Of a stretch of DNA of 64,000 bases, positions 1,586-61,846 are shown piece by piece. The position numbers and the translations under genes were made by a program. The notes below the pieces were generated by a model that was not told where the DNA came from, ran no database searches, and saw only the letters and a list, made by a program, of their open reading frames with translations. Within the stretch, counting starts at the first letter, position 1. Each line of letters begins with the position of its first letter. The stretch lies in NCBI GenBank assembly GCA_035936835.1, contig DASYVT010000209.1:11627-75626 (forward strand), given 5' to 3'. This stretch comes from Candidatus Methylomirabilota bacterium. Lineage in GTDB: Bacteria; Methylomirabilota; Methylomirabilia; Rokubacteriales; CSP1-6.

Positions 1586-3133
1586 GTGCCGTCCGGGCGC
1601 CGCTCCCCGAGCTGGGTCGCCCCCGGGGACTGGAACGCGTTCTTCGGGCTGGCGCTCGACAACACGACCCAGCTCGTCATCCTGTCGAGCCTGCTCATCG
1701 GGGTGTTCAAGTTCCCCGCTGACCTCGTCCTTGGACGCATGGTTCCCGGCACGGCGGCTGGCGTGCTGGTCGGTGACCTGGTCTACACCGCGCTCGCCAT
1801 CCGCCTCATGCGGCGCACCGGACGTGACGACGTCACGGCGATGCCCTTCGGGATCGACACGCCCTCGCTCTTCGGCATCGTTTTCGGCGTGCTGGGTCCC
1901 GTGATGCTGCTGACCGGCGACCCGGTACTCGCCTGGAAGGTGGGCATGGGCGTGACCGTGGCGATGGGCGCGCTCAAGCTCGTCCTCGCCTTCGCGGGCG
2001 ACCGGGTTCGGAGAATCGTGCCGCGCGCGGCCCTCCTGGGATCGATCGCCGGCGTCGCCATCCTGCTCGTCGCCTTCCTGCCCGCGCTCAAGGTCTTCGC
2101 CGATCCGCTCGTTGGGGTGACCTCGCTGACCATCGTCCTTGTTGCACTGGTTGGACGTGTGAGGCTGCCGGGCGGCGTGCCCGGGGCCTTCGCGGCGGTC
2201 GCGGCGGGCGCGGCGGTGTTCTGGCTGCGGGCGGCGTGGGGCGCCGGGCCCGCCTCGCTCGCGGCGCCCCCTGTGGCGCTCGCCCTGGCCATCCCGTGGC
2301 CGACGCTGTCGTGGGTGCCCGCCTTCGGCGCCGTGCTGCCGTACCTGCCGCTCGCCGCGCCCTTCGCGATCGCCACCGTGATCGGCGGCATCGACAACAC
2401 CGAGTCCGCTATTGCAGCGGGCGACGAGTATCGAACGCGGGACATCCTCCTGACGGAGGCGGTGGCGACGGCGGTGGCGGGGCTCTGCGGCGGCGTGATC
2501 CAGAACACGCCCTACATCGGGCATCCGGCGTACAAAGCCATGGGCGCGCGCGCCGGCTACACGCTCGCGACCGCGCTGGTAATCGGCGTGGGCGGGGCGG
2601 TGGGCGCGGTCTCGGTCCTTGTGAGCGTGCTGCCGGAGGCTGCCGTCGCGCCCATCCTGATCTTCATCGGGCTCGAGATCACGGCGCAGGCCTTCGTCGC
2701 CTCACCGGCTCGCCATGCCGCCGCCGTCGCAGTGTCGTTCATCCCCGCCGTTGCGGCCCTTGTGCTGATCGAGGTAACGAGCTTCCTGGCGTCGGTGGGC
2801 CGGAGCCCGGGGGACCTGGCAGGCGAGGGCAAGGCGGCCTTTCAGCACCTCCTCGTCCTCGGCAACGGCTTCATCGTGACGGCGCTCTTGTGGGGGTGGG
2901 CGCTGGCGTCCATCATCGACGGCCGCCTCGGGCGCGCGGCAGCCGTGTTCGTCGCCTGCGCTGCCGCCACGCTCTTCGGGCTCATGCACTCACCACTGCC
3001 GAGCGGCGCGCTCTTCTGGCCGTGGTCGGCGGGGGGCAGCGGGGCGCTGGCGCTGGCAGCGGCTTATGGCGTCGGCGCGGGGTTCCTGCTCGCGCTGGCC
3101 CACGCCCAGAGCCGGACGCGCGAGGGGCGCTAG
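1586..3133 (+). CDS. polytopic membrane permease, possibly NCS2 / xanthine-uracil-AzgA-like family
   Basis: 515 aa, about 12 hydrophobic segments, loose resemblance to NCS2 permease blocks. Family assignment is tentative. Confidence 0.5.
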   Translation: MPSGRRSPSWVAPGDWNAFFGLALDNTTQLVILSSLLIGVFKFPADLVLGRMVPGTAAGVLVGDLVYTALAIRLMRRTGRDDVTAMPFGIDTPSLFGIVFGVLGPVMLLTGDPVLAWKVGMGVTVAMGALKLVLAFAGDRVRRIVPRAALLGSIAGVAILLVAFLPALKVFADPLVGVTSLTIVLVALVGRVRLPGGVPGAFAAVAAGAAVFWLRAAWGAGPASLAAPPVALALAIPWPTLSWVPAFGAVLPYLPLAAPFAIATVIGGIDNTESAIAAGDEYRTRDILLTEAVATAVAGLCGGVIQNTPYIGHPAYKAMGARAGYTLATALVIGVGGAVGAVSVLVSVLPEAAVAPILIFIGLEITAQAFVASPARHAAAVAVSFIPAVAALVLIEVTSFLASVGRSPGDLAGEGKAAFQHLLVLGNGFIVTALLWGWALASIIDGRLGRAAAVFVACAAATLFGLMHSPLPSGALFWPWSAGGSGALALAAAYGVGAGFLLALAHAQSRTREGR

Positions 3134-5052: not shown

Positions 5053-5133
5053 CGCTCCGGGCTGGGCCCGGCGCTTCGGAAGTTTGTGCGCCACGTGCAC
5101 GCCGCGTAGCAGTAATATCTGGCCGGGTTGCCC

Positions 5134-7599
5134 ATGAGCGACGAGCGGCCGTCTCCTGATTCGAGCGCGCAGGTCCTGAAGGACTCGTTGGACGAGATCC
5201 GCCAGAGCCTCGACGCGCTCGCCGATCGCCTCCAGCGACTGGAGGCGGCGCCCAGCGGTTCGCCGCCTACGCCTCGTGTCACGCCCGCCGACAGTCCCCC
5301 CGCCGACAGTCCCCCCGCCGACGGTCCCGATGACCGCGACGCGCTCTCGGTCGGTCAGGAGATCCTCGCCATCCCGTCTTCGGGGCTCGAGCCCGCCCAG
5401 GTCTTCTCCCTCGCCATGGATCGGGTCGCGCGGCTGCTGTCCGCCGATCGCGCCATGCTCTTCATCTGGGAGCCAGATGGCTCTCGCCTCGTGGCCTGCG
5501 CCGGGCGAGGGTTCCGGCGCGATGATCTCGAGACCATCTCCATTAAAGCGGGAGACGGACTCGTCGGCCAAGCCTTCCAGGACGAGCAGATTCTGCGCTC
5601 CTCGAGCCGCGCCGTCAGCGTCGCCGAGGACCCGTTTCTGGCGCTCTTCCCGGTGCGTGACGCCGTGGCCGTGCCGATCCGCGCCGCCGGGCACGCGGCT
5701 GGGGTCCTCTACGCTGGCCGCCGCGCGCCGCGCCCGGCCTTCTCCGAGCAGGAGGTGCTGCTGCTGCTCGTGATCGCCGACCGCGTCGGCACGGCCCTGG
5801 CCCACCGACAGTTCGTCGAGACCACGGGGGGCCACATCCGCCGACTCCGTGAGCTCGAGGTCTTCCTGGGCCACGTGCTCGTGGGCCAGGAGAGGGAGGA
5901 CATGCTCTCGCGGGCTTGTGAGGTCGCGTGCCGCCTGGCGGGCGTGCGCGTCGCCGCGTTGGGCGTGCCGGCCGGGTCGGCGGGCCTGTCGCTCGCCGCG
6001 GCCTCGGGGCTGCCGGCCGGGGCGGTCAGCTCCTGGCGGGCGGACACCGGCTACGGGCTGACCGGCGAGATGTTCGCGACACATCGCCCCGTGCTGTGCC
6101 GCGACATCCAGAGCCGCGATGGGTGTGAGAACGATGTGCTCCGCGAGGCGGGACTGCGCGCCTGTCTCGTGGTTCCCGTCCGACTGCGGCACCAGACCGT
6201 GGGCGCGCTCTACCTCGCGGATCCCGAGGCGCGCGAGTTCACGCCGGACGAGGTGGCCACTGTCCAGGTGCTGGCCTCGCTCCTCGCGCTGGGGATGGAG
6301 AACAATCGGCTCTACGGCGAGGTCAGGACCGCCTTCGAGGGGATGGCGTCGGCCCAGGACCAGCTCGTCCAGACGGAGAAGGCCCGCGCCGTCGGCGCCA
6401 TGGCGGGCGGTATCGCCAACGAGTTCAACAACCTCCTTGCCATCGTGCTGGGGAAGACCCAGCTTATGCTGACCCGAGCCCCCGAGGGACCCTTGCGCGA
6501 GGGGCTCGCCGCGGTTGAGGAAGCGGCGTGGCGGGCGGCGGACTTCGTACGACGGCTCCAGGGCTTCGCGGCGACGAGCATGGACGACGGCACGGGCCCG
6601 GTGGACTTGGCCGCGGTGGTGCAGGACGCCGTCGCGCTGACGCGCGCGCTCTGGAAGGACGAGGTCGAAGCTCGCGGGGCGCCGATCGAGGTGGTGACCG
6701 ACGTCGACCGGGTCCCGCCCGTGGAGGGGCAGGCGGCCGCGCTGCGCGAGGCGGTGATGAACCTGATCCTGAATGCCGTGGACGCCATGCCGCGCGGCGG
6801 GCGCCTGGGCCTGACCCTCCGGCGGGTCGACGCCGGCGTGGAGCTCCACGTGTCGGATGGGGGCGAAGGAATGCCCGAAGACGTGCGGCGCCGCATCTTC
6901 GATCCCTTCTTCACCACGCGCGCCCCGCACCGGACCGGGCTCGGGCTGTCCGTCGTGCACGGGGTCGTCAACCGGCACCGCGGCAGCGTCCGGGTGAGGA
7001 GCGAGCCCGGCGGGGGTACGACGGTGACGCTCTCGTTTCCGGCGGCTCCCGGTCACACCGTGGACTCGCGCATGCCCCAGATGCCTGCGATTCCAGAGAT
7101 GCCTGCGATGCCCGAGATGCCTGTGATACCCGAGATGCCCGAAATGCCCGAGATATCCGTGATCCCCGAGATGTCCACGATGCCCGTAATGCAGGACCCA
7201 CCCGAAGACGAGATTCGCGCCGCCGCAACCGTCTCCATTCTCGTGCTCGAAGACGAAGAGCATATCCGTACCATGCTGGTGGAGGCTCTGACCGGCGCCG
7301 GCCATAGGGTCGAATCGGCGACCGACGGGCTCACGGGCCTGGCGCGCTTCCAAGGCGGGGCCTTCGACGTGGTCCTGACCGATCTCTCGCTGCCCGAGTG
7401 CTCGGGGCTGGATGTGGCGCGCTCGGTCAAGCGCATGCGTCCGGAAACGCCGGTGGTGCTCATCACCGGGTGGGGACACCTCCTCGACCCCGAGCGACTG
7501 CGCGACAGCGGCGTCGACCTCATGCTGGTCAAGCCGTTCCGCTTCGAGCGCGTCCTGTCCGTGCTCGGCGACGCCCTGCGGCTGCGACCAATCGTATAG
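5134..7599 (+). CDS. hybrid sensor histidine kinase: coiled-coil N-terminus, two GAF domains, HisKA, HATPase_c, Met/Pro-repeat linker and C-terminal receiver domain
   Basis: H-box AVGAMAGGIANEFNNLL; N, G1 and G2 boxes (LILNAVDAMP, DGGEGMP, GLGLSV); REC motifs (LVLEDEE ... DVVLTDLSLP ... KP). Start taken as the ATG at 5134. Confidence 0.85.
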   Translation: MSDERPSPDSSAQVLKDSLDEIRQSLDALADRLQRLEAAPSGSPPTPRVTPADSPPADSPPADGPDDRDALSVGQEILAIPSSGLEPAQVFSLAMDRVARLLSADRAMLFIWEPDGSRLVACAGRGFRRDDLETISIKAGDGLVGQAFQDEQILRSSSRAVSVAEDPFLALFPVRDAVAVPIRAAGHAAGVLYAGRRAPRPAFSEQEVLLLLVIADRVGTALAHRQFVETTGGHIRRLRELEVFLGHVLVGQEREDMLSRACEVACRLAGVRVAALGVPAGSAGLSLAAASGLPAGAVSSWRADTGYGLTGEMFATHRPVLCRDIQSRDGCENDVLREAGLRACLVVPVRLRHQTVGALYLADPEAREFTPDEVATVQVLASLLALGMENNRLYGEVRTAFEGMASAQDQLVQTEKARAVGAMAGGIANEFNNLLAIVLGKTQLMLTRAPEGPLREGLAAVEEAAWRAADFVRRLQGFAATSMDDGTGPVDLAAVVQDAVALTRALWKDEVEARGAPIEVVTDVDRVPPVEGQAAALREAVMNLILNAVDAMPRGGRLGLTLRRVDAGVELHVSDGGEGMPEDVRRRIFDPFFTTRAPHRTGLGLSVVHGVVNRHRGSVRVRSEPGGGTTVTLSFPAAPGHTVDSRMPQMPAIPEMPAMPEMPVIPEMPEMPEISVIPEMSTMPVMQDPPEDEIRAAATVSILVLEDEEHIRTMLVEALTGAGHRVESATDGLTGLARFQGGAFDVVLTDLSLPECSGLDVARSVKRMRPETPVVLITGWGHLLDPERLRDSGVDLMLVKPFRFERVLSVLGDALRLRPIV
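7072..7192 (+). repeat. imperfect 15-bp tandem repeats encoding the (E)MP(A/V/E)(M/I)P linker in the hybrid kinase. A second 15-bp x 3 repeat at 5285-5328 encodes PADSPPADSPPADGP.
   Basis: Direct reading of the sequence. Confidence 0.85.
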
Positions 7600-28026: not shown

Positions 28027-28617
28027 ATGGACCGTGCAGCCACCGGAATCGCTCTAGGAGTCATCCTCTTCGTGACGGTCGTGATCGGTGTCCTGATCGT
28101 CAAGGGACATCGCGCCTCGGCCCCCCGGCAAGAAGCCGTGTCCTCGCAAGCCGACCAGGAGATCAAGGAGATCCACATCCAGGAGGACGCCAAGGGCGGG
28201 AGCTATCGCTGGAGCCTCGACGCTGAGCAGGCGGAGTCCTATCCGGGGACCGGTAAGACCGTTCTCCGAAAGGTGACGATCGGGGTTGACGAGCCCGGCA
28301 GGCGCTGGAAGGTGACGAGCGACGAGGGCGACCTCCTCCAGGACACCCGGGACGTCGAGCTGCGCGGCAAAGTCGTGCTGGTGTCCAGCGAGGGGCTGCG
28401 CGTGGAGACGACGGTGCTGCGTTGGAACAACGCCGAGGGAAGGGCGTGGACGGACCAGCCGGTGACCATCTATAAGGGCGGAGGCGTGGTCAAGGGCACC
28501 GGACTCGAAGTCCGGCCCTCCGAAGAGATCACGCTCGTCCACGGGCGTGTCACGGCGACCTTCGGCGGGACCAAGGCGACAGCGGCTCCGGCTCCCGTCA
28601 GGAAGGGCAAATCGTGA
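28027..28617 (+). CDS. lptC: LPS export protein LptC
   Basis: Single N-terminal TM anchor, about 190 aa, position kdsC-lptC-lptA-lptB. Confidence 0.65.
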   Translation: MDRAATGIALGVILFVTVVIGVLIVKGHRASAPRQEAVSSQADQEIKEIHIQEDAKGGSYRWSLDAEQAESYPGTGKTVLRKVTIGVDEPGRRWKVTSDEGDLLQDTRDVELRGKVVLVSSEGLRVETTVLRWNNAEGRAWTDQPVTIYKGGGVVKGTGLEVRPSEEITLVHGRVTATFGGTKATAAPAPVRKGKS

Positions 28618-29264
28618 AGTTGACCATTGCGGCGCCCGCGCTCGGCGTTGCTCTCCTGCCCGCGGTCGGCGTAGCCCTTCTGCCCGCGGTCGGCGTAGCC
28701 CTCATGATAGTCTTCGTGTTCACTGGAATAGCGGCGGCCCAGCAGCAGGGCGCTGTCAAGCCGCGCCCCGCGGCCTCGGGCCCGACGTTGACCCCGCCCG
28801 CGGCGCCGGCTGCCGAAGGCAAGAATGGGCCGGTGATCGTAGACTCCGACAGCCTCGAGAGCATGCAGAAGGAAGGGCTCTCCGTCTTCAAGGGCAACGT
28901 CGTGGCCAAGCAGAACAACTCGGTCCAGTACGCCGACCGGATGGAAGTGTACACGGACTCCCAGACGGACCGCATCGAGCGCGTGGTGTCTACCGGCAAT
29001 GTGCGGATCATCACCCGCGACTGCCGCATGGGAACTGCCAGCCGCACCGAGTACTACGAGGCCGAGCAGCGTGTGGTCCTCATCGGCAACGCGCGGGTGT
29101 GGCAGGGGGCCGACATAGTTACGGGCGAGCGGATCACCCTCTACCTCGCCGAGGACCGGAGCCTGGTCGAGGGAGGGAAGCAGGAGCGCGTCAAGGCCAT
29201 CTTCTACCAGGACCGCCAGAAAACCGAGATTAAGATGGGTCCGAATGGGCCCATATGTCCCTGA
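28614..29264 (+). CDS. lptA: LPS transport periplasmic protein LptA (OstA-like)
   Basis: Signal peptide plus an OstA_N-like beta-jellyroll ([11 protein letters not shown]...[13 protein letters not shown]). Synteny. Confidence 0.75.
28657..28704 (+). repeat. 24-bp perfect tandem duplication (LPAVGVAL x2) inside the LptA signal peptide
   Basis: Direct reading of the sequence. Confidence 0.9.
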
Positions 29265-34469: not shown

Positions 34470-34653
34470 ACGCAGTCTCCGGCTGAGCGCGGTTCAGGCT
34501 GAGCGCGCTGCCCGACTGCGCGCCCTCTATGATGCGGCGCGCGGGCATTTCCCTTGAGGCGCGTGACCGCCCATGCTACTCTGCCGCAAGCGCGTCCTGA
34601 GATGGCGCGCGCCGCATCCACTGGACGACGGGGACACGACAAGGAGGAAGACG

Positions 34654-35805
34654 ATGGCGCGTGAGGAGTACCTGTTCACTTCGGAGTCGGTGACCGAGGG
34701 GCATCCGGACAAGATCGCAGACCAGATCTCCGACGCCGTCCTGGACGCTATCCTGGCCCAGGACCCGACGGGGCGCGTGGCGTGCGAGACGCTCCTGACC
34801 ACCGGGCTCGTCGTCGTGGCGGGCGAGATCACCACCTCCTGCTACGTGGACATTCCGAGGATCGCCCGCGAGACCATCAAGGCGGTCGGCTACACGCGCG
34901 CGAAGTATGGCTTCGACTACGAGACCTGCGCTGTGATCACGGCCATCGACGAACAGTCGGGCGACATCGCCATGGGTGTGGACAAGCTGGGCGCCGGCGA
35001 CCAGGGTCTGATGTTCGGCTACGCATGCACGGAGACCGAGGAACTGATGCCGCTGCCCATCATGCTCGCGCACAAGCTGGTGCAGCGCCTGACGGCGGTG
35101 CGGAAGAGCGGCGCGCTCGACTACCTCCGGCCCGACGGCAAGAGCCAGGTGTCGGTGCGCTACGTCGACGGCAAGCCGGTGTCCGTCGAGACCGTGGTCA
35201 TCTCGACCCAGCACAGCCCCAACGTGACGCTGGAGACGATCCGGCAGGACCTGGTCGAGCAGGTCGTGATCCCCACCATTCCGAAGCATCTGATCGACCC
35301 CAAGCGGATCACCTATCACATCAATCCGACCGGGCGCTTCGTCACCGGCGGTCCCATGGGCGACACGGGGCTGACGGGGCGCAAGATCATCGTGGACACC
35401 TACGGCGGCGCGGCCCCGCATGGCGGCGGCGCGTTCTCGGGCAAGGATCCGACGAAGGTGGACCGATCGGCCTGCTATATGGCGCGGCACGTGGCCAAGA
35501 ACATCGTGGCGGCCGGCCTCGCCGAGCGGGCGCAGGTGCATGTGGCATACGCGATCGGCGTCGCCGACCCGGTCTCCATCATGGTGGAGACCTTCGGCAC
35601 GGGAAAGGTGCCGAACCTCAAGCTCGAGCAGATGATCCGTCGGCACTTCGATTTCACGCCGGCGGGCATCATCAAGTACCTCGACTTGCGCCGGCCGATC
35701 TACCGGAAGACGGCCGCCTACGGGCACTTCGGGCGAAGCGAGCCGGAGTTCACCTGGGAGCACACGAACCGGGTCAAGGACCTGCGCGACGACGCGGGTA
35801 TCTGA
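34654..35805 (+). CDS. metK: S-adenosylmethionine synthase
   Basis: [32 protein letters not shown]. Confidence 0.95.
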
Positions 35806-35833: not shown

Positions 35834-37151
<1,318 letters not shown>

Positions 37152-57083: not shown

Positions 57084-58232
57084 ATGCGCGTCGGCCTGTT
57101 CACGAACAACTACCTGCCGTTCCGCGGGGGTGTCACCACCGCGGTAGAGACGCTGCGGCAGGGGCTCGAGGCGCAGGGACATCGGGCCTGGGTCTTCGCG
57201 CCGGCGTCGAGCGCGCCCCACGACGATCCCGCCTTTGTCTTCCGCTACCCCTCGGTGCCCGCGCCGACCTATCCGGGCTTCGCCCTGCCGCTGCCCTTCT
57301 CGAGGCGCTGGAGCCGCGCGGCGCTGGCCCTCGACCTCGACATCTTCCACGCCCAGCATCCGTTCCTCCTCGGCGTGACGGCTCGTCGACTCGCCCGCTG
57401 CCAAGGCCGCCCGCTCGTCTTCACCTACCACACCCGCTACGAGAAGTACGCCCACTACGTGCCGCTCCCGGAACCCCTGGTCGCCTCGCTCGCGGTCAGG
57501 CTCGCCTCCCGCTTCGCCGGCGCAGCAGATCTCGTGATCGCCCCTTCGGCCCGGATCGCCGAGAGCCTCGCGGACCTCGGCGTGCGCGCGCCGATCGCCG
57601 TCGTGCCTACTGGAGTGCCGCTCGATCTCTTCCGTCCGGGCGATCGGGGGGAGGCGAGGCGAGCTCTCGGCCTGGACGAGGACGCGCCGCTGTGCCTCTA
57701 CGTCGGCCGCCTCGATCGCGAGAAGAGCGTGGAGCGCGTGATCGACGCGTTCGGCTCGATCGCCCTGGCCGTGTCGGGGGCGCGGCTTCTTCTCGTGGGG
57801 CAGGGAAGCCACGAGGCGGCCCTCAGGCGCCTCGCCGCGGCAAGCCCTGCGAGCGAAGCCATCTGTTTCGCCGGCTCGGTCGCCCGGGAAGAGCTGCCGC
57901 CGTACTACCAGGCGGCCGACCTCTTCCTCTTCTCCTCCGAGACCGAGACCCAGGGTCTCGTGCTGGCCGAGGCGCACGCCTGCGGGCTGCCCGCCGTCGC
58001 GGTCCGCGCCTCGGGCGTCGACGAGGTCGTGAGGGACGGCGAGACCGGGCTTTTGACGAAGGCCGATACCGAAGAGCTGGCCGACGCGGCCATCGGACTC
58101 CTGCTGGACGCTCCCCGGCGAAGCGCCATGGCGCTCGCCGCGCGTGCTCTCGCGGCGAGCGATTTTTCCGCGTCGCGCCAGGTCGAGGTCATGGCCGGGC
58201 ACTACCTGCGTCTCCTGGGCGGTTTCGCGTGA
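57084..58232 (+). CDS. glycosyltransferase family 4 (GT-B) protein
   Basis: N-terminal Glyco_trans_4 region and C-terminal Glycos_transf_1 region with the E-x7-E motif (ETQGLVLAEA). Confidence 0.8.
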   Translation: MRVGLFTNNYLPFRGGVTTAVETLRQGLEAQGHRAWVFAPASSAPHDDPAFVFRYPSVPAPTYPGFALPLPFSRRWSRAALALDLDIFHAQHPFLLGVTARRLARCQGRPLVFTYHTRYEKYAHYVPLPEPLVASLAVRLASRFAGAADLVIAPSARIAESLADLGVRAPIAVVPTGVPLDLFRPGDRGEARRALGLDEDAPLCLYVGRLDREKSVERVIDAFGSIALAVSGARLLLVGQGSHEAALRRLAAASPASEAICFAGSVAREELPPYYQAADLFLFSSETETQGLVLAEAHACGLPAVAVRASGVDEVVRDGETGLLTKADTEELADAAIGLLLDAPRRSAMALAARALAASDFSASRQVEVMAGHYLRLLGGFA

Positions 58233-58504
58233 GCCCGGCGGGCGTCTCCGGTCGGTGGCTCCGGGCCGCGTTCCAGCCCGCATGGGATCCTGGGGCCGGG
58301 GACGCGGGACGGCGCGGGTTCATGGCGCCCGACCCCCGGGCGCGGACGCTGCTGCGGGTGTTGGTCTCGTACCCGGAGGTGCGCTACGTCCTCCCGGACC
58401 GCGTGGGCCTCACGGCCGGCGCCGACGCCCGCCTGATCGAGACCTTGATGCGCTTCCTGGGGCGCCAGGGATGGCTCATCACGCGCGTGACGTCCTCCGG
58501 TTGA
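58229..58504 (+). CDS. hypothetical small protein (91 aa)
   Basis: GTG-initiated ORF overlapping the GT4 stop. Its stop codon lies in the first copy of the tandem repeat. Weak support. Confidence 0.25.
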   Translation: MSPAGVSGRWLRAAFQPAWDPGAGDAGRRGFMAPDPRARTLLRVLVSYPEVRYVLPDRVGLTAGADARLIETLMRFLGRQGWLITRVTSSG

Positions 58505-58578
58505 GACCCAACCCTTGATCTGGCGCTTGAGACCCAACCCTTGATCTGGCGCTTGAGACTCAGCCCGTGATCTGGAAC
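58501..58578. repeat. 3 x 26-bp tandem direct repeat (TTGAGACCCAACCCTTGATCTGGCGC x2 perfect, third copy 21/26) whose last copy contains the GTG start of the PaaK-like gene
   Basis: Direct reading of the sequence. The unit resembles the 5' end of the downstream gene (GTGATCTGG...GCGCTCGAGAGCC). Confidence 0.9.
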
Positions 58579-59880
58579 CCGGCGCTCGAGAGCCTGCCCC
58601 GCGATTCGATGCGCGCGATGCAGCTCGAGCGTCTCCGCGCGGCGGTGGCGTGGGCGGGCGAGCGCGTGCCGTTCTACCGGAACGCCCTCGCCGAGGCCGG
58701 CGTGGAGCCCTCCACGCTCAAGAGCCTCGAGGACCTCGAGCGGCTGCCCTTCACCCGCAAGGCGCATCTCCGCGAGCACTATCCGTGGGGGCTCTTCGCG
58801 GTGCCGCAGTCCCAGCTCGCGCGGATCCATGCCTCGTCAGGCACCAAGGGCAAGCCGACCGTGGTCGGCTACACGCGAAACGACCTCCTTATTTGGCGAG
58901 AAGTCATGGCCCGCTCCCTCGCGGCGGGGGGCGCCGAGCCCGGCCAGCTCATCCAGATCGCGTACGGCTACGGGCTCTTCACGGGAGGCCTGGGCTTCCA
59001 CGACGGCGCCGAGCACATGGGCTTGACCGTCGTGCCCGTGTCCTCGGGGAATACGCTCCGGCAGATCCTGCTGCTTCAGGATTTTCGGCCCCAGGGCCTG
59101 GCCTGCACGCCGTCATTCGCGCTCCACATCGGCGAGACGATGCGCGAGCAGGGGATAGACCCGCGGAGCGTCGGCCTCCGGTACGGGCTCCTCGGCGCCG
59201 AGCCCTGGACGGAAGGCCTGCGGCGACAGATCGAGGCGCTGTGGGGTATCCACGCGGTCGACTTCTACGGGCTCAGCGAGATCATCGGGCCCGGCGTCGC
59301 GACGGAGTGTGCCGAGGGGCGGGACGGCCTCCACGTCAACGAGGACCACTTCCTGCCCGAGGTGGTGGACCCGGGGACGGGCGAGCCGCTGCCGGCGGGC
59401 ACGGAGGGCGAGCTCGTCCTGACCTGTCTCACCAAGCGGGCGCTGCCCATCCTCCGGTACAGGACGGGCGACGTGACGCGCCTCGATTTCGAGCCGTGCC
59501 GCTGCGGCAGGACCACGGTGCGGATGGCACGCATCAAGGGCCGCACCGACGACATGCTGGTGATCAAGGGCGTCAACGTGTACCCCTCCCAGCTCGAGGC
59601 GGCGCTGTTGACCTTGCCGGACCTGGCACCGCACTATCAGCTCGTGGTGGACCGCGGCAAAGGCTTCCCGACCATCGAGGTGCACGTCGAGCCCTCCGAA
59701 GAGCGCGTGCGCGCATGGGGCGGCTTCGACTCGGCGCGGCCGGAGGTCGTCGCGCTGTCGCTGCGGGTAGGGGAGCTGCTCCGTGCCCACCTGGGCCTCA
59801 ACCCCGAAGTCGCCATCGTACCGCCCAAGACCATTCCCCGCAGCGAGGGGAAGGCGGTGCGGGTCGTGGAAAGGAGCTGA
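58567..59880 (+). CDS. paaK: phenylacetate-CoA ligase family (PaaK / coenzyme F390 synthetase / CapK-like) adenylate-forming enzyme
   Basis: SSGTKGKPT AMP-binding motif, YGLSE, GD motif, about 435 aa. Confidence 0.8.
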   Translation: MIWNPALESLPRDSMRAMQLERLRAAVAWAGERVPFYRNALAEAGVEPSTLKSLEDLERLPFTRKAHLREHYPWGLFAVPQSQLARIHASSGTKGKPTVVGYTRNDLLIWREVMARSLAAGGAEPGQLIQIAYGYGLFTGGLGFHDGAEHMGLTVVPVSSGNTLRQILLLQDFRPQGLACTPSFALHIGETMREQGIDPRSVGLRYGLLGAEPWTEGLRRQIEALWGIHAVDFYGLSEIIGPGVATECAEGRDGLHVNEDHFLPEVVDPGTGEPLPAGTEGELVLTCLTKRALPILRYRTGDVTRLDFEPCRCGRTTVRMARIKGRTDDMLVIKGVNVYPSQLEAALLTLPDLAPHYQLVVDRGKGFPTIEVHVEPSEERVRAWGGFDSARPEVVALSLRVGELLRAHLGLNPEVAIVPPKTIPRSEGKAVRVVERS

Positions 59881-59882
59881 CC

Positions 59883-60713
59883 ATGAGCCAGCGCGTCACG
59901 GAAGCGGAGCTCCTCGCGCGGATCGAGCGCGGCGAGCGCATCGAGTCGACCGAGGAGATGACGGAGGAGTACCGGCAGAGCTTGGTGCACCTCATGACCA
60001 TGCAGGCCGACTCCGAGCTCGCGGGCGGCTACGGCTACGTGCCGTGGATCATGAAGGCTCCCGGCGTCGAGGAGAAGCACGTCGTCGCGCAGATCGTCAA
60101 GGACGAGCACCGGCACGCCGCCGTCATGTACGGGCTCCTCGCCGACCTTGGAGTGGACGTGGACGCCCACGTGCGGGCCCACGACGAAGCCTTCGCCATG
60201 CGCATCGACGCGTCGGCCGATGACATCGGCACCGCTCGGATCGGCGCCGACAAGCGCGTGAACATCTTCTACTACCCGATCGACACGTGGGCCGACTTCA
60301 TCTTCTTCAACTTCTGCATGGACAGAGGGGCGGGTCACCAGCTGGAAGACGTGCGGCAGTGTTCCTACGGCCCGTGGGCGCGAGCCATCGAGGGCATCTT
60401 CAAGGAGGAGAAGTTCCACATCCGCCACGGCGAGTATTGGGTCACGAAGCTCGGCGGGGACCCCGCCACGCGGGGTGAGGCGCAGGCGACGCTCAACAAG
60501 TGGTTCATCCGCACGATGAACATCTTCGGCCGGCCCGGCTCGCCCAAAAACGCCCTCTACCGGAAGTACAAACTCAAGGTCCGGGACAACGATGAGGTCC
60601 GCCAGGCCTTCGCGGCCGAGGTCAAGGAGAAGGCTTTAGCAGTGGGCCTCACGCTGCCCGAGTGGATTCCGGTCTGGGACCGGCTGCCCGAAGAGGCCCA
60701 GATCCCAGGCTAG
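59883..60713 (+). CDS. PaaA/PaaC-family ferritin-like diiron protein (1,2-phenylacetyl-CoA epoxidase subunit A-like)
   Basis: Alignable to PaaA through YRQSLVHLMTMQADSELAGG...KDEHRHAAVMY...FFNFCMDRGAGHQLEDVRQCSYGPWARAIEGIFKEEKFHIRHGE. Confidence 0.7.
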   Translation: MSQRVTEAELLARIERGERIESTEEMTEEYRQSLVHLMTMQADSELAGGYGYVPWIMKAPGVEEKHVVAQIVKDEHRHAAVMYGLLADLGVDVDAHVRAHDEAFAMRIDASADDIGTARIGADKRVNIFYYPIDTWADFIFFNFCMDRGAGHQLEDVRQCSYGPWARAIEGIFKEEKFHIRHGEYWVTKLGGDPATRGEAQATLNKWFIRTMNIFGRPGSPKNALYRKYKLKVRDNDEVRQAFAAEVKEKALAVGLTLPEWIPVWDRLPEEAQIPG

Positions 60714-60718
60714 CTGCC

Positions 60719-61384
60719 ATGCCCCGCGTCGCGGCCTTACTCCTCGCCACGAGTCTTCTGGCATGCGCCGTTCCTGGCGAGTGCCAGACGGGCCGCCAGG
60801 TCAAGGTTGTCCTCGAGTTCCAGCAGCAGGGGCAGGACAGCCGCCAGGGCGTCCAGGGCCGTGTGAGCGGGGTCATCATCCAAGATGGTACGACACGCGG
60901 GCAGGACGGCAAGGCGCGAGGCCGCGGCGGTGTCGCGGTTCAGGACACGACGACGCGGACCATCCGGAGCGAGGGCATCTTCACGATCGTCCAGGACGGC
61001 GGCACGGCGAGCATGCTGGTGGCGAGCGAGGTGCCGGTCACCGTGGTCGGGTGGTTCCGCGACTACGCGGCGGGGCAGGGGTACGCGGCGCAGGGGATGG
61101 CCTGGCAGCGCGTCGGCACCACCCTCGTCGTGAGCCCGACCATCCTGCCCAACGGGCAGATCCGCGTCCGGCTCATTCCACAAGTAAGCTACTTCTCGCC
61201 CCAGGGCGACGGCAGCATCGAGTTCAACGAGGCCGCGACCGAGGTGATCGTGCCCAACGGTCGCGCGATGCGGATCGGCGGCGCCACCCGCGGCATCAAC
61301 CAGGTGACGCGCCAGATCCTCGGCTACCGCGAGCAGCAGTCCTCGAGCGAGTCGAGCTTCATCCTCACCGCCACCGTCCAGTGA
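60719..61384 (+). CDS. small lipoprotein whose C-terminal region resembles a secretin beta-domain
   Basis: Lipobox LLACAV. LVVSPTILPNGQIRVRLIPQVS...EVIVPNGRAMRIGG follows the secretin pattern L-x-V-x-P-x-I-x-x-G-x-I-x-L-x-I-x-x-x-V-S ... GG. Confidence 0.45.
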   Translation: MPRVAALLLATSLLACAVPGECQTGRQVKVVLEFQQQGQDSRQGVQGRVSGVIIQDGTTRGQDGKARGRGGVAVQDTTTRTIRSEGIFTIVQDGGTASMLVASEVPVTVVGWFRDYAAGQGYAAQGMAWQRVGTTLVVSPTILPNGQIRVRLIPQVSYFSPQGDGSIEFNEAATEVIVPNGRAMRIGGATRGINQVTRQILGYREQQSSSESSFILTATVQ

Positions 61385-61846
61385 CCTCGTCCCCCCCAGT
61401 GAGCTCCTCAGCCGACGATTCCTCCGTTCCGGCGGAGCTCAAGGCCCGAATCGAGGGCCGACCCCTGGACCCGGGCGCTCGGCATACAGTTCCTCGCCCT
61501 GGGGCGTGGCTTCTGCCGGCTGGGGCTGACCGTCCAGCCCCACATGGTCAACTTCCAGGGCTATCCCCACGGCGGGGTCATCTTCTCCCTGGCGGACATC
61601 GCCTTCGGCGCGGCCTGCAACTCCCACGGCGGGACCGCGGTGGCGCTCAACATGACCATCAGCTTCCTGACTGCCGTCCAGGCCGGCTCGCGGCTCGTAG
61701 CGGACGCGCGGGAGATCAAGCAGGGCAGACGGGCAGGCTTCTACCAGGTGAGCGTGACGAGTGAGAAGGGGGCGCTGGTAGCGCAGGTCCACTGCGTGGC
61801 GCATATGGTGCCGGTGCTGGGGGGGTGCCCGCCGAAGAGTGATTGA
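61381..61846 (+). pseudogene. paaI: PaaI-like hotdog-fold acyl-CoA thioesterase interrupted by a +1 frameshift near a poly-C tract (about 61461-61470)
   Basis: The conserved DPWTRALGIQFLALG...HGGVIFSLADIAFGAACNS is in frame 2, which has no ATG/GTG/TTG after its upstream stop at 61400-61402. The only plausible N-terminus (GTG at 61381 or 61399) is in frame 1. Confidence 0.55.

Follow-up and report, generated by a model that had tools for sequence, protein, structure and literature searches.

The phenylacetate-CoA ligase (PaaK)-like gene of a Methylomirabilota (Rokubacteria) metagenome-assembled genome begins inside a 26-base tandem repeat present in three copies. We estimate at about 0.72 the probability that this array is a locus-specific variable-number tandem repeat (VNTR), generated by tandem duplication of a stop-spacer-start junction, that alters neither of the flanking proteins and whose effect on translation is near-neutral or restricted to a modest tuning. 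We class the array as an ordinary VNTR of local origin, situated at an operon junction. It is most likely a length polymorphism of near-neutral effect, with a tuning of translation at the very most, and it implies no new class of element or mechanism. Positions are those of the whole 64-kb stretch of DNA that we analyzed (the window); all genes described around the array are on its + strand.

A triple repeat at an operon junction

The 26-base triple tandem repeat at 58501-58578 is real. It was recognized by reading the sequence, by Tandem Repeats Finder (58501-58575, period 26, 2.9 copies, 93% matches, score 129), and by a repeat search, and it consists, as the original prediction had it, of two perfect copies and one diverged copy. 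The copies are direct, head to tail and in register, and the unit falls within the ~10-100 bp typical of VNTRs and minisatellites. Copy 1 (58501-58526, + strand, TTGAGACCCAACCCTTGATCTGGCGC) contains the stop codon of the small upstream ORF (TGA at 58502-58504), which had been correctly seen to terminate there, followed by a copy of a 10-nt spacer and by a decoy start codon, TTG at 58515. Copy 2 (58527-58552, + strand, TTGAGACCCAACCCTTGATCTGGCGC) is identical to copy 1 and has its decoy TTG at 58541. Copy 3 (58553-58578, + strand, TTGAGACTCAGCCCGTGATCTGGAAC) represents the ancestral junction; it matches copies 1-2 at 21/26 bases and differs from them at 5/26. As noticed at the outset, this diverged copy provides the true GTG start of the paaK-like gene (58567), the perfect copies reading TTG at that position. 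The repeated unit thus comprises the stop codon of a 91-aa ORF, the 10-nt spacer, and the first three paaK codons. The natural register of the duplication is CGS-TTGAGAC...NTGATCTGG (58498-58575), that is 26 nt ending with paaK codon 3. A derivation from a 33-nt in-frame duplication followed by a 7-nt deletion was considered and is needless, as the register CGG...TGG gives a plain 26-nt duplication.

The unit had also been likened to the first 30 nt of the gene, which is partly right. Copy 3 holds gene nt 1-12, and the 5' half of the unit, CGCTTGAGACCCAACCC, matches at 13/17 positions gene nt 17-33, a 17-nt stretch inside paaK (58583-58599, + strand, CGCTCGAGAGCCTGCCC; P ~4.5e-4 per random 60-nt stretch of the window). 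This match may be an older layer of duplication or a microhomology favoring slippage. None of 100 shuffles of the window yielded two unit matches. The unit had been proposed for a search elsewhere in the genome: there is no further copy in the 64-kb window at <=3 mismatches, and a metagenome pattern scan returned this locus and chance matches.

The genes around the array are tightly packed. A GT4-family glycosyltransferase gene (57084-58232, + strand), assigned from the ORF list and from Pfam matches for the same gene order in L081 and other contigs, ends with a TGA overlapping the GTG of the next ORF (GTGA at 58229-58232). This small ORF (58229-58504, + strand) encodes ~91 aa, or 60 aa in some gene calls that start it at ATG 58322, and has no Pfam or NCBIfam match. 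By tblastn, its residues 1-88 out of 91 were detected in every fetched Methylomirabilota-type locus and were absent from the paaK loci of other phyla (L022-L080), and most of the substitutions among strains affect third codon positions. It is located immediately 5' of paaK in nearly all Methylomirabilota-type loci and further upstream in L009 and L014. To judge from its conservation, the 91-aa ORF is a real gene, and it may be a lineage-specific partner of the PaaK-like enzyme. We rejected the idea that it forms the C-terminal tail of a longer GT4 protein, which 443-codon frames in relatives might suggest, since these are GC-rich alternative frames of GT4.

The PaaK-like gene itself (58567-59880, + strand, 437 aa) carries the Pfam domains AMP-binding and AMP-binding_C_2; its product scores 544 bits against TIGR02155, under the 646-bit cutoff, and its N-terminus, MIWNP, is aligned from residue 1 by homologues across phyla. 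Two nucleotides past its stop begins a PaaA/PaaC-family gene (59883-60713, + strand) with a strong Shine-Dalgarno match, GGAAAGGAGC, followed by genes for a secretin-domain protein and a 4HBT thioesterase. The GT4-to-4HBT gene order (57084-61846) is conserved in close strains. The set is unusual, as it associates GT4, the 91-aa ORF, the PaaK-like gene, a lone PaaA/PaaC-family gene, a short secretin-domain protein, and 4HBT; no other phenylacetate oxygenase subunit gene occurs between the PaaA/PaaC-family gene and the 4HBT gene. The conservation of this unusual order suggests a role other than canonical phenylacetate catabolism. Within the GT4 coding sequence, ~70 nt before its stop, we also observed a perfect 11-bp GC-rich hairpin followed by ATTTTTCC and resembling an intrinsic terminator (58132-58161). 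The codons there spell ALAARALAAS, and the hairpin may have arisen by chance from the coding sequence or may mark a site of internal attenuation upstream of the small ORF and paaK.

Copy number and history of the junction

The original prediction had called for a comparison of copy number across strains. We compared the contigs encoding the closest PaaK homologues (96-98% protein identity, 93-97% DNA identity). At this same locus, copy number differs among these close relatives: the gap between the stop of the upstream ORF and the paaK start measures 10, 36, or 62 nt, corresponding to one, two, or three copies. The 10-nt gap, with the spacer GAATCATCCA or GACTCAGCCC, is present in L081-83, L085-89, L091, L106, and L107-110; 11 different contigs encoding seven different close PaaK proteins have this gap. 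A single copy with the same gap is found in L092, a 90% relative. Three contigs have a gap of 36 nt: L084, which is the same as L098, reads GACCCAACCC-GTGATCTGGCGG followed by GACTCAGCCC-GTG, and L090 and L103, from separate samples, read GACCCAGCCC-GTGATCCGGCGG followed by GACCCAGCCC-GTG. The 62-nt gap is restricted to the window, so that the three-copy allele is known from one assembly only. Both flanking ORFs are intact in every allele.

This variation among closely related strains supports the slippage-type origin that had been proposed, in the sense of a locally generated tandem duplication. Copy 3 has the same spacer, GACTCAGCCC, as the one-copy strains L091, L106, and L107-109. As these strains carry the exact last-copy sequence, the native junction was duplicated in place and the array does not reflect an insertion. 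Position 4 of the spacer is a T in the one-copy alleles and in the last copy of the window and of L084, and a C in all upstream copies, which is consistent with a single origin of the duplication. The upstream copy and the true copy differ by 19%, indicating that the first duplication is old, and the presence of two perfect copies in the window indicates that the last expansion is recent.

We propose that the 26-nt segment made of the stop, the spacer, and the first three paaK codons was duplicated by replication slippage or unequal exchange. The most parsimonious history would start with one old duplication from one to two copies, after which the upstream copy diverged. In the lineage of the window, this diverging copy would have undergone a change of the decoy start from GTG to TTG and a G to C substitution, before a recent duplication of the upstream copy, from two to three, produced the two perfect copies. 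All multi-copy alleles can be explained in this way by two expansion events. The paaK gene nearest to that of the window is the one-copy L081 (96.7%), and because strain relationships are star-like or recombinant, this order of events is a matter of parsimony and not of proof. The sole effect of the extra copies would be a spacer of 36 or 62 nt instead of 10 nt. The stop is still the first TGA and the PaaK start still the last GTG, so neither protein is changed, and the extra copies would be tolerated because only the length of the spacer varies.

Similar events were found in relatives. A sister lineage (87% PaaK identity) has at its small-ORF/paaK junction an independent 15-nt repeat, GGATGACACGCGGGC, present in one, three, or four units (L001 2954-2995; L111 1454-1495; L112 416-467). 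The corresponding gaps are 40 nt in L001 and L111, 55 nt in L112, and 10 nt in P0026, the last measured from gene coordinates only. L111 (three units) and L112 (four units) encode an identical PaaK protein, their paaK DNA is 99.2% identical, and their unit sequences differ in concert. In this lineage, an ATG overlapping the small-ORF stop begins a mini-ORF, 15 or 20 codons long, ending on the paaK GTGA. In L010, the paaK start region is tandemly duplicated over 17 nt (2979-3016; ATGATCGGGGACCGCGC and GTGATCTGGAACCGCGA, 13/17), and a decoy ATG there opens a 6-codon ORF whose TGA overlaps the true GTG. In L021 (5113-5166), a perfect 27-nt duplication (two copies) covers the final codons of a PaaA/PaaC-like gene, its TAG stop, and the GGAGC that comes next. 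We discarded L012 and L015/L016 as start-region duplications, the similarity being too weak.

Tandem duplications are common in these GC-rich genomes. The 64-kb window contains 13 tandem arrays, mostly located inside genes and with periods that are multiples of 3. We do not retain the junction as a statistical hot spot: it is enriched compared with the mostly coding flanks, but the enrichment is not significant against the intergenic background, for which the two intergenic arrays of the window give ~0.5 expected versus 2 observed in other lineages, on a small sample chosen post hoc. Other arrays were recorded in passing. The largest one in the window (7067-7186; nested periods 9, 18, and 36; score 140) is located within an open frame at 5116-7599 and presumably encodes a repetitive peptide segment. 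An in-frame 24-nt repeat of 2.9 copies (28634-28703) encodes LLPAVGVA three times in an N-terminal hydrophobic segment (signal or membrane) of the gene at 28614-29264. A perfect 14-nt duplication (CCCGCTGTGAATCG, 1.9 copies, 35834-35860) is located in the 77 nt that separate a metK-like gene (34573-35805) from an ahcY-like gene (35883-37151); this spacer has no Rfam family, hence no S-adenosylhomocysteine riboswitch, at the gathering threshold. On a related Methylomirabilota contig (L004), a 135-bp tandem repeat of 2.0 copies (7016-7286, score 433) is found ~4 kb 3' of paaK, at the end of the fetched stretch of 7287 nt.

Translation across the junction and alternative explanations

In most relatives, the distance from the small-ORF stop to the paaK start is -4 to +9 nt, gaps of +10 nt also occurring, and this small gap represents a classic translational-coupling geometry. 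The paaK GTG region pairs with a Shine-Dalgarno partner at -2.7 kcal/mol, where the background has a median of -3.5 and the PaaA-like gene and ahcY reach -9.5 and -8.6, respectively; by this comparison of pairing energies, the paaK start has no Shine-Dalgarno match. The two ORFs thus show the features of a coupled pair, with stop and start overlapping or very close and a downstream start devoid of a strong ribosome-binding site. These sequence features make it probable that the translation of paaK is coupled to that of the upstream ORF.

The repeat creates a chain of predicted mini-ORFs, all on the + strand. The TTG of mini-ORF a (58501-58518; TTG AGA CCC AAC CCT TGA) overlaps the stop of the upstream ORF (TTGA), and its TGA overlaps the TTG at 58515. 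There begins mini-ORF b (58515-58544; nine codons, LIWRLRPNP*), whose TGA overlaps the TTG at 58541, the start of mini-ORF c (58541-58570; nine codons, LIWRLRLSP*), whose TGA in turn overlaps the true paaK GTG at 58567 (GTGA). The chain is present in the window, L084, and L090; the decoy start is a GTG in L084 and L090. The decoy ORFs of nine codons end on the next start because the period of 26 is 2 mod 3 and paaK begins with NTG-ATC; every paaK start shows the NTGA overlap. Terminating ribosomes may be relayed from mini-ORF to mini-ORF up to the true GTG and, judged by geometry alone, the chain would keep coupling across the longer spacer. The relay geometry itself is no evidence of selection, since it follows automatically from the conserved NTG-ATC (NTGA) start at a period of 2 mod 3. 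Two further points weaken the case for a relay: TTG is a weak start codon, and the L085-type one-copy alleles (TTAAG) have no bridging mini-ORF, so that a gap of 10 nt can do without one. In net effect, the extra copies would be near-neutral, or would tune PaaK translation modestly and probably downward; they would not act as an on/off switch.

The array had been described as possibly leader-like, and a prediction of its RNA structure had been suggested. The fold of 58470-58620 is no better than that of shuffled sequences (z = -0.84). An Rfam search of 57500-59500 at E<=10 returned only sub-threshold noise, the whole window has no Rfam match at the gathering threshold, and neither a promoter nor a terminator was found within the array. 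In every allele, 8-18 kcal/mol are required to open the start region, with no trend according to copy number, either among the natural alleles or when the window is edited in silico to one, two, or three copies. The array therefore lacks the alternative RNA structures, or the terminator after a leader ORF, of leader-peptide attenuators and riboswitch leaders, and the term leader-like applies only in the weak sense that nine-codon mini-ORFs are encoded.

The suggestion that the repeat is phase-variable was not supported. A contingency locus would switch PaaK expression within a population by frequent and reversible gain or loss of 26 nt. Differences in copy number among close strains would fit with such a behavior, as would the two perfect copies of the window, which imply a recent expansion, and the pair L111/L112, identical in PaaK protein, one 15-nt unit apart and with units differing in concert. 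However, copy number switches neither frame nor promoter spacing: the frame and start of paaK are constant from one to three copies, both proteins are unaffected, and no promoter on which the repeat could act was detectable. The unit is long and limited to three copies, in contrast to the classical tracts of 1-9 nt. Most strains have a single copy. The 19% divergence between copies 1-2 and copy 3 implies a long-persistent two-copy state, and two expansions cover every allele seen, which indirectly argue for a slow turnover. We consider phase variation improbable. A second explanation, which we hold to be unlikely, though less so than phase variation, is a selected translational rheostat, in which spacer length and decoy mini-ORFs would set the stoichiometry of the 91-aa protein and PaaK and lineages would adjust it by gain or loss of units. 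At least three independent duplications have occurred at the same junction (26, 15, and 17 nt). The two periods that contain the start, 26 and 17, both belong to the 2 mod 3 class, the only one in which a decoy ORF ends on the true start (P = 1/9); this shared class is weak evidence for a selective filter, and the doubtful 8-nt case of L015/L016 would fit it as well. The mutation of the decoy GTG to TTG in the window and the lack of a Shine-Dalgarno match for paaK also point in this direction. Against selection, the sample is small and was picked after the fact, the excess of arrays at the junction is not significant in the comparison with intergenic DNA, and the mini-ORF geometry is automatic. 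In its broadest form, this proposal would make the Methylomirabilota 91-aa ORF/paaK junction a recurrently remodeled "coupling rheostat" where duplications are kept only when the chain of mini-ORFs is unbroken; we put it forward as a tentative and rather unlikely extension of the sequence comparisons. If true, unit number would tune PaaK output between strains, and the array would be a locally generated, non-mobile counterpart of the mycobacterial MIRU-VNTRs in an uncultured phylum.

Two further possibilities are less probable still. The repeats could be iterated operator sites for a DNA-binding regulator of paa-like genes, as direct repeats can be, or an assembly artefact, given that one metagenome-assembled genome is the only source of the three-copy allele. 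There is no promoter-like site nearby, the operon around the junction is tightly packed, its stop and start codons overlapping, and the spacer of one-copy strains may differ (GAATCATCCA), so that no conserved motif is kept, which speaks against operators. An artefact is unlikely, since typical reads and assembly k-mers exceed the 78 nt of the array and three samples yielded two-copy alleles in independent assemblies. Taken together, operator sites or an artefact are very improbable. An even smaller probability is attached to the insertion at the paaK start codon of a mobile or interspersed element similar to the MIRUs, even though the intercistronic position in an operon and the unit ORFs overlapping the flanking stop and start match the descriptions of these elements (PMC12548453, PMC3184786). 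No other copy of the unit was found in the 64-kb window. A scan of JGI metagenomes with a degenerate pattern detected 14 contigs, three corresponding to this locus and 11 to chance matches in unrelated genes, and the one-copy strains reveal the unit as the native junction, duplicated in place.

A local, near-neutral VNTR remains our preferred reading. The repeat is a ready strain marker for this Methylomirabilota population. The natural series of one, two, and three copies and the parallel 15-nt series of the sister lineage could be used to probe the effect of spacer length and decoy mini-ORFs on termination-reinitiation coupling at a start codon without a Shine-Dalgarno sequence. The array also illustrates a general rule: tandem duplications spanning a stop or a start codon are invisible to the proteins, and consequently build up at operon junctions.

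Comparison with known repeat systems

The array shares with the contingency loci of Neisseria and Haemophilus its position adjoining a gene start and a repeat number that varies among related strains. It differs from them by a unit of 26 nt instead of 1-9 nt, by a maximum of three copies, and by the absence of a frameshift or promoter-spacing effect; the divergence of its copies also indicates a slow turnover, unlike that of contingency loci. Like generic bacterial minisatellites, it is made of head-to-tail units within 10-100 bp, is polymorphic among strains, and has newer copies that are more alike than the older ones. Unlike these, its unit spans a stop, a spacer, and a start, leaving the neighboring ORFs intact and creating decoy mini-ORFs. 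Short ORFs delivering ribosomes to a coupled downstream gene have been described (PMC12548453). As in these termination-reinitiation systems, the downstream start of the array has no Shine-Dalgarno sequence and is overlapped by a TGA (NTGA), but its putative mini-ORFs are by-products of duplication, with weak TTG starts in the window.

The nearest analogue described is the class of MIRU-VNTRs of mycobacterial operons, such as the intercistronic repeats of senX3-regX3 (Supply et al. 1997, as reported in PMC3184786 and PMC12548453). MIRUs are 40-100 bp long, interspersed at ~40-50 loci, and thought to be mobile (PMC3184786, PMC12548453). The unit described here measures 26 nt, derives from duplication of the native junction, is found at this locus only both in the 64-kb window and in the metagenome pattern scan, and belongs to a different phylum; no pair of filled and empty sites among the alleles indicates a foreign insertion. 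In both cases, tandem intercistronic units lie within an operon, oriented with the genes, and vary in copy number among strains. In both, short ORFs in the units overlap the flanking stop and start, here as TTGA and GTGA with mini-ORFs of nine codons. This includes the downstream overlap of -4 (NTGA), the distance at which the MIRU ORF is coupled to the gene at its insertion site (PMC12548453). The rationale put forward for MIRU-VNTRs, that coupling is kept and expression barely disturbed, may, as a proposal, be extended to the tandem copies of the 91-aa ORF/paaK junction.
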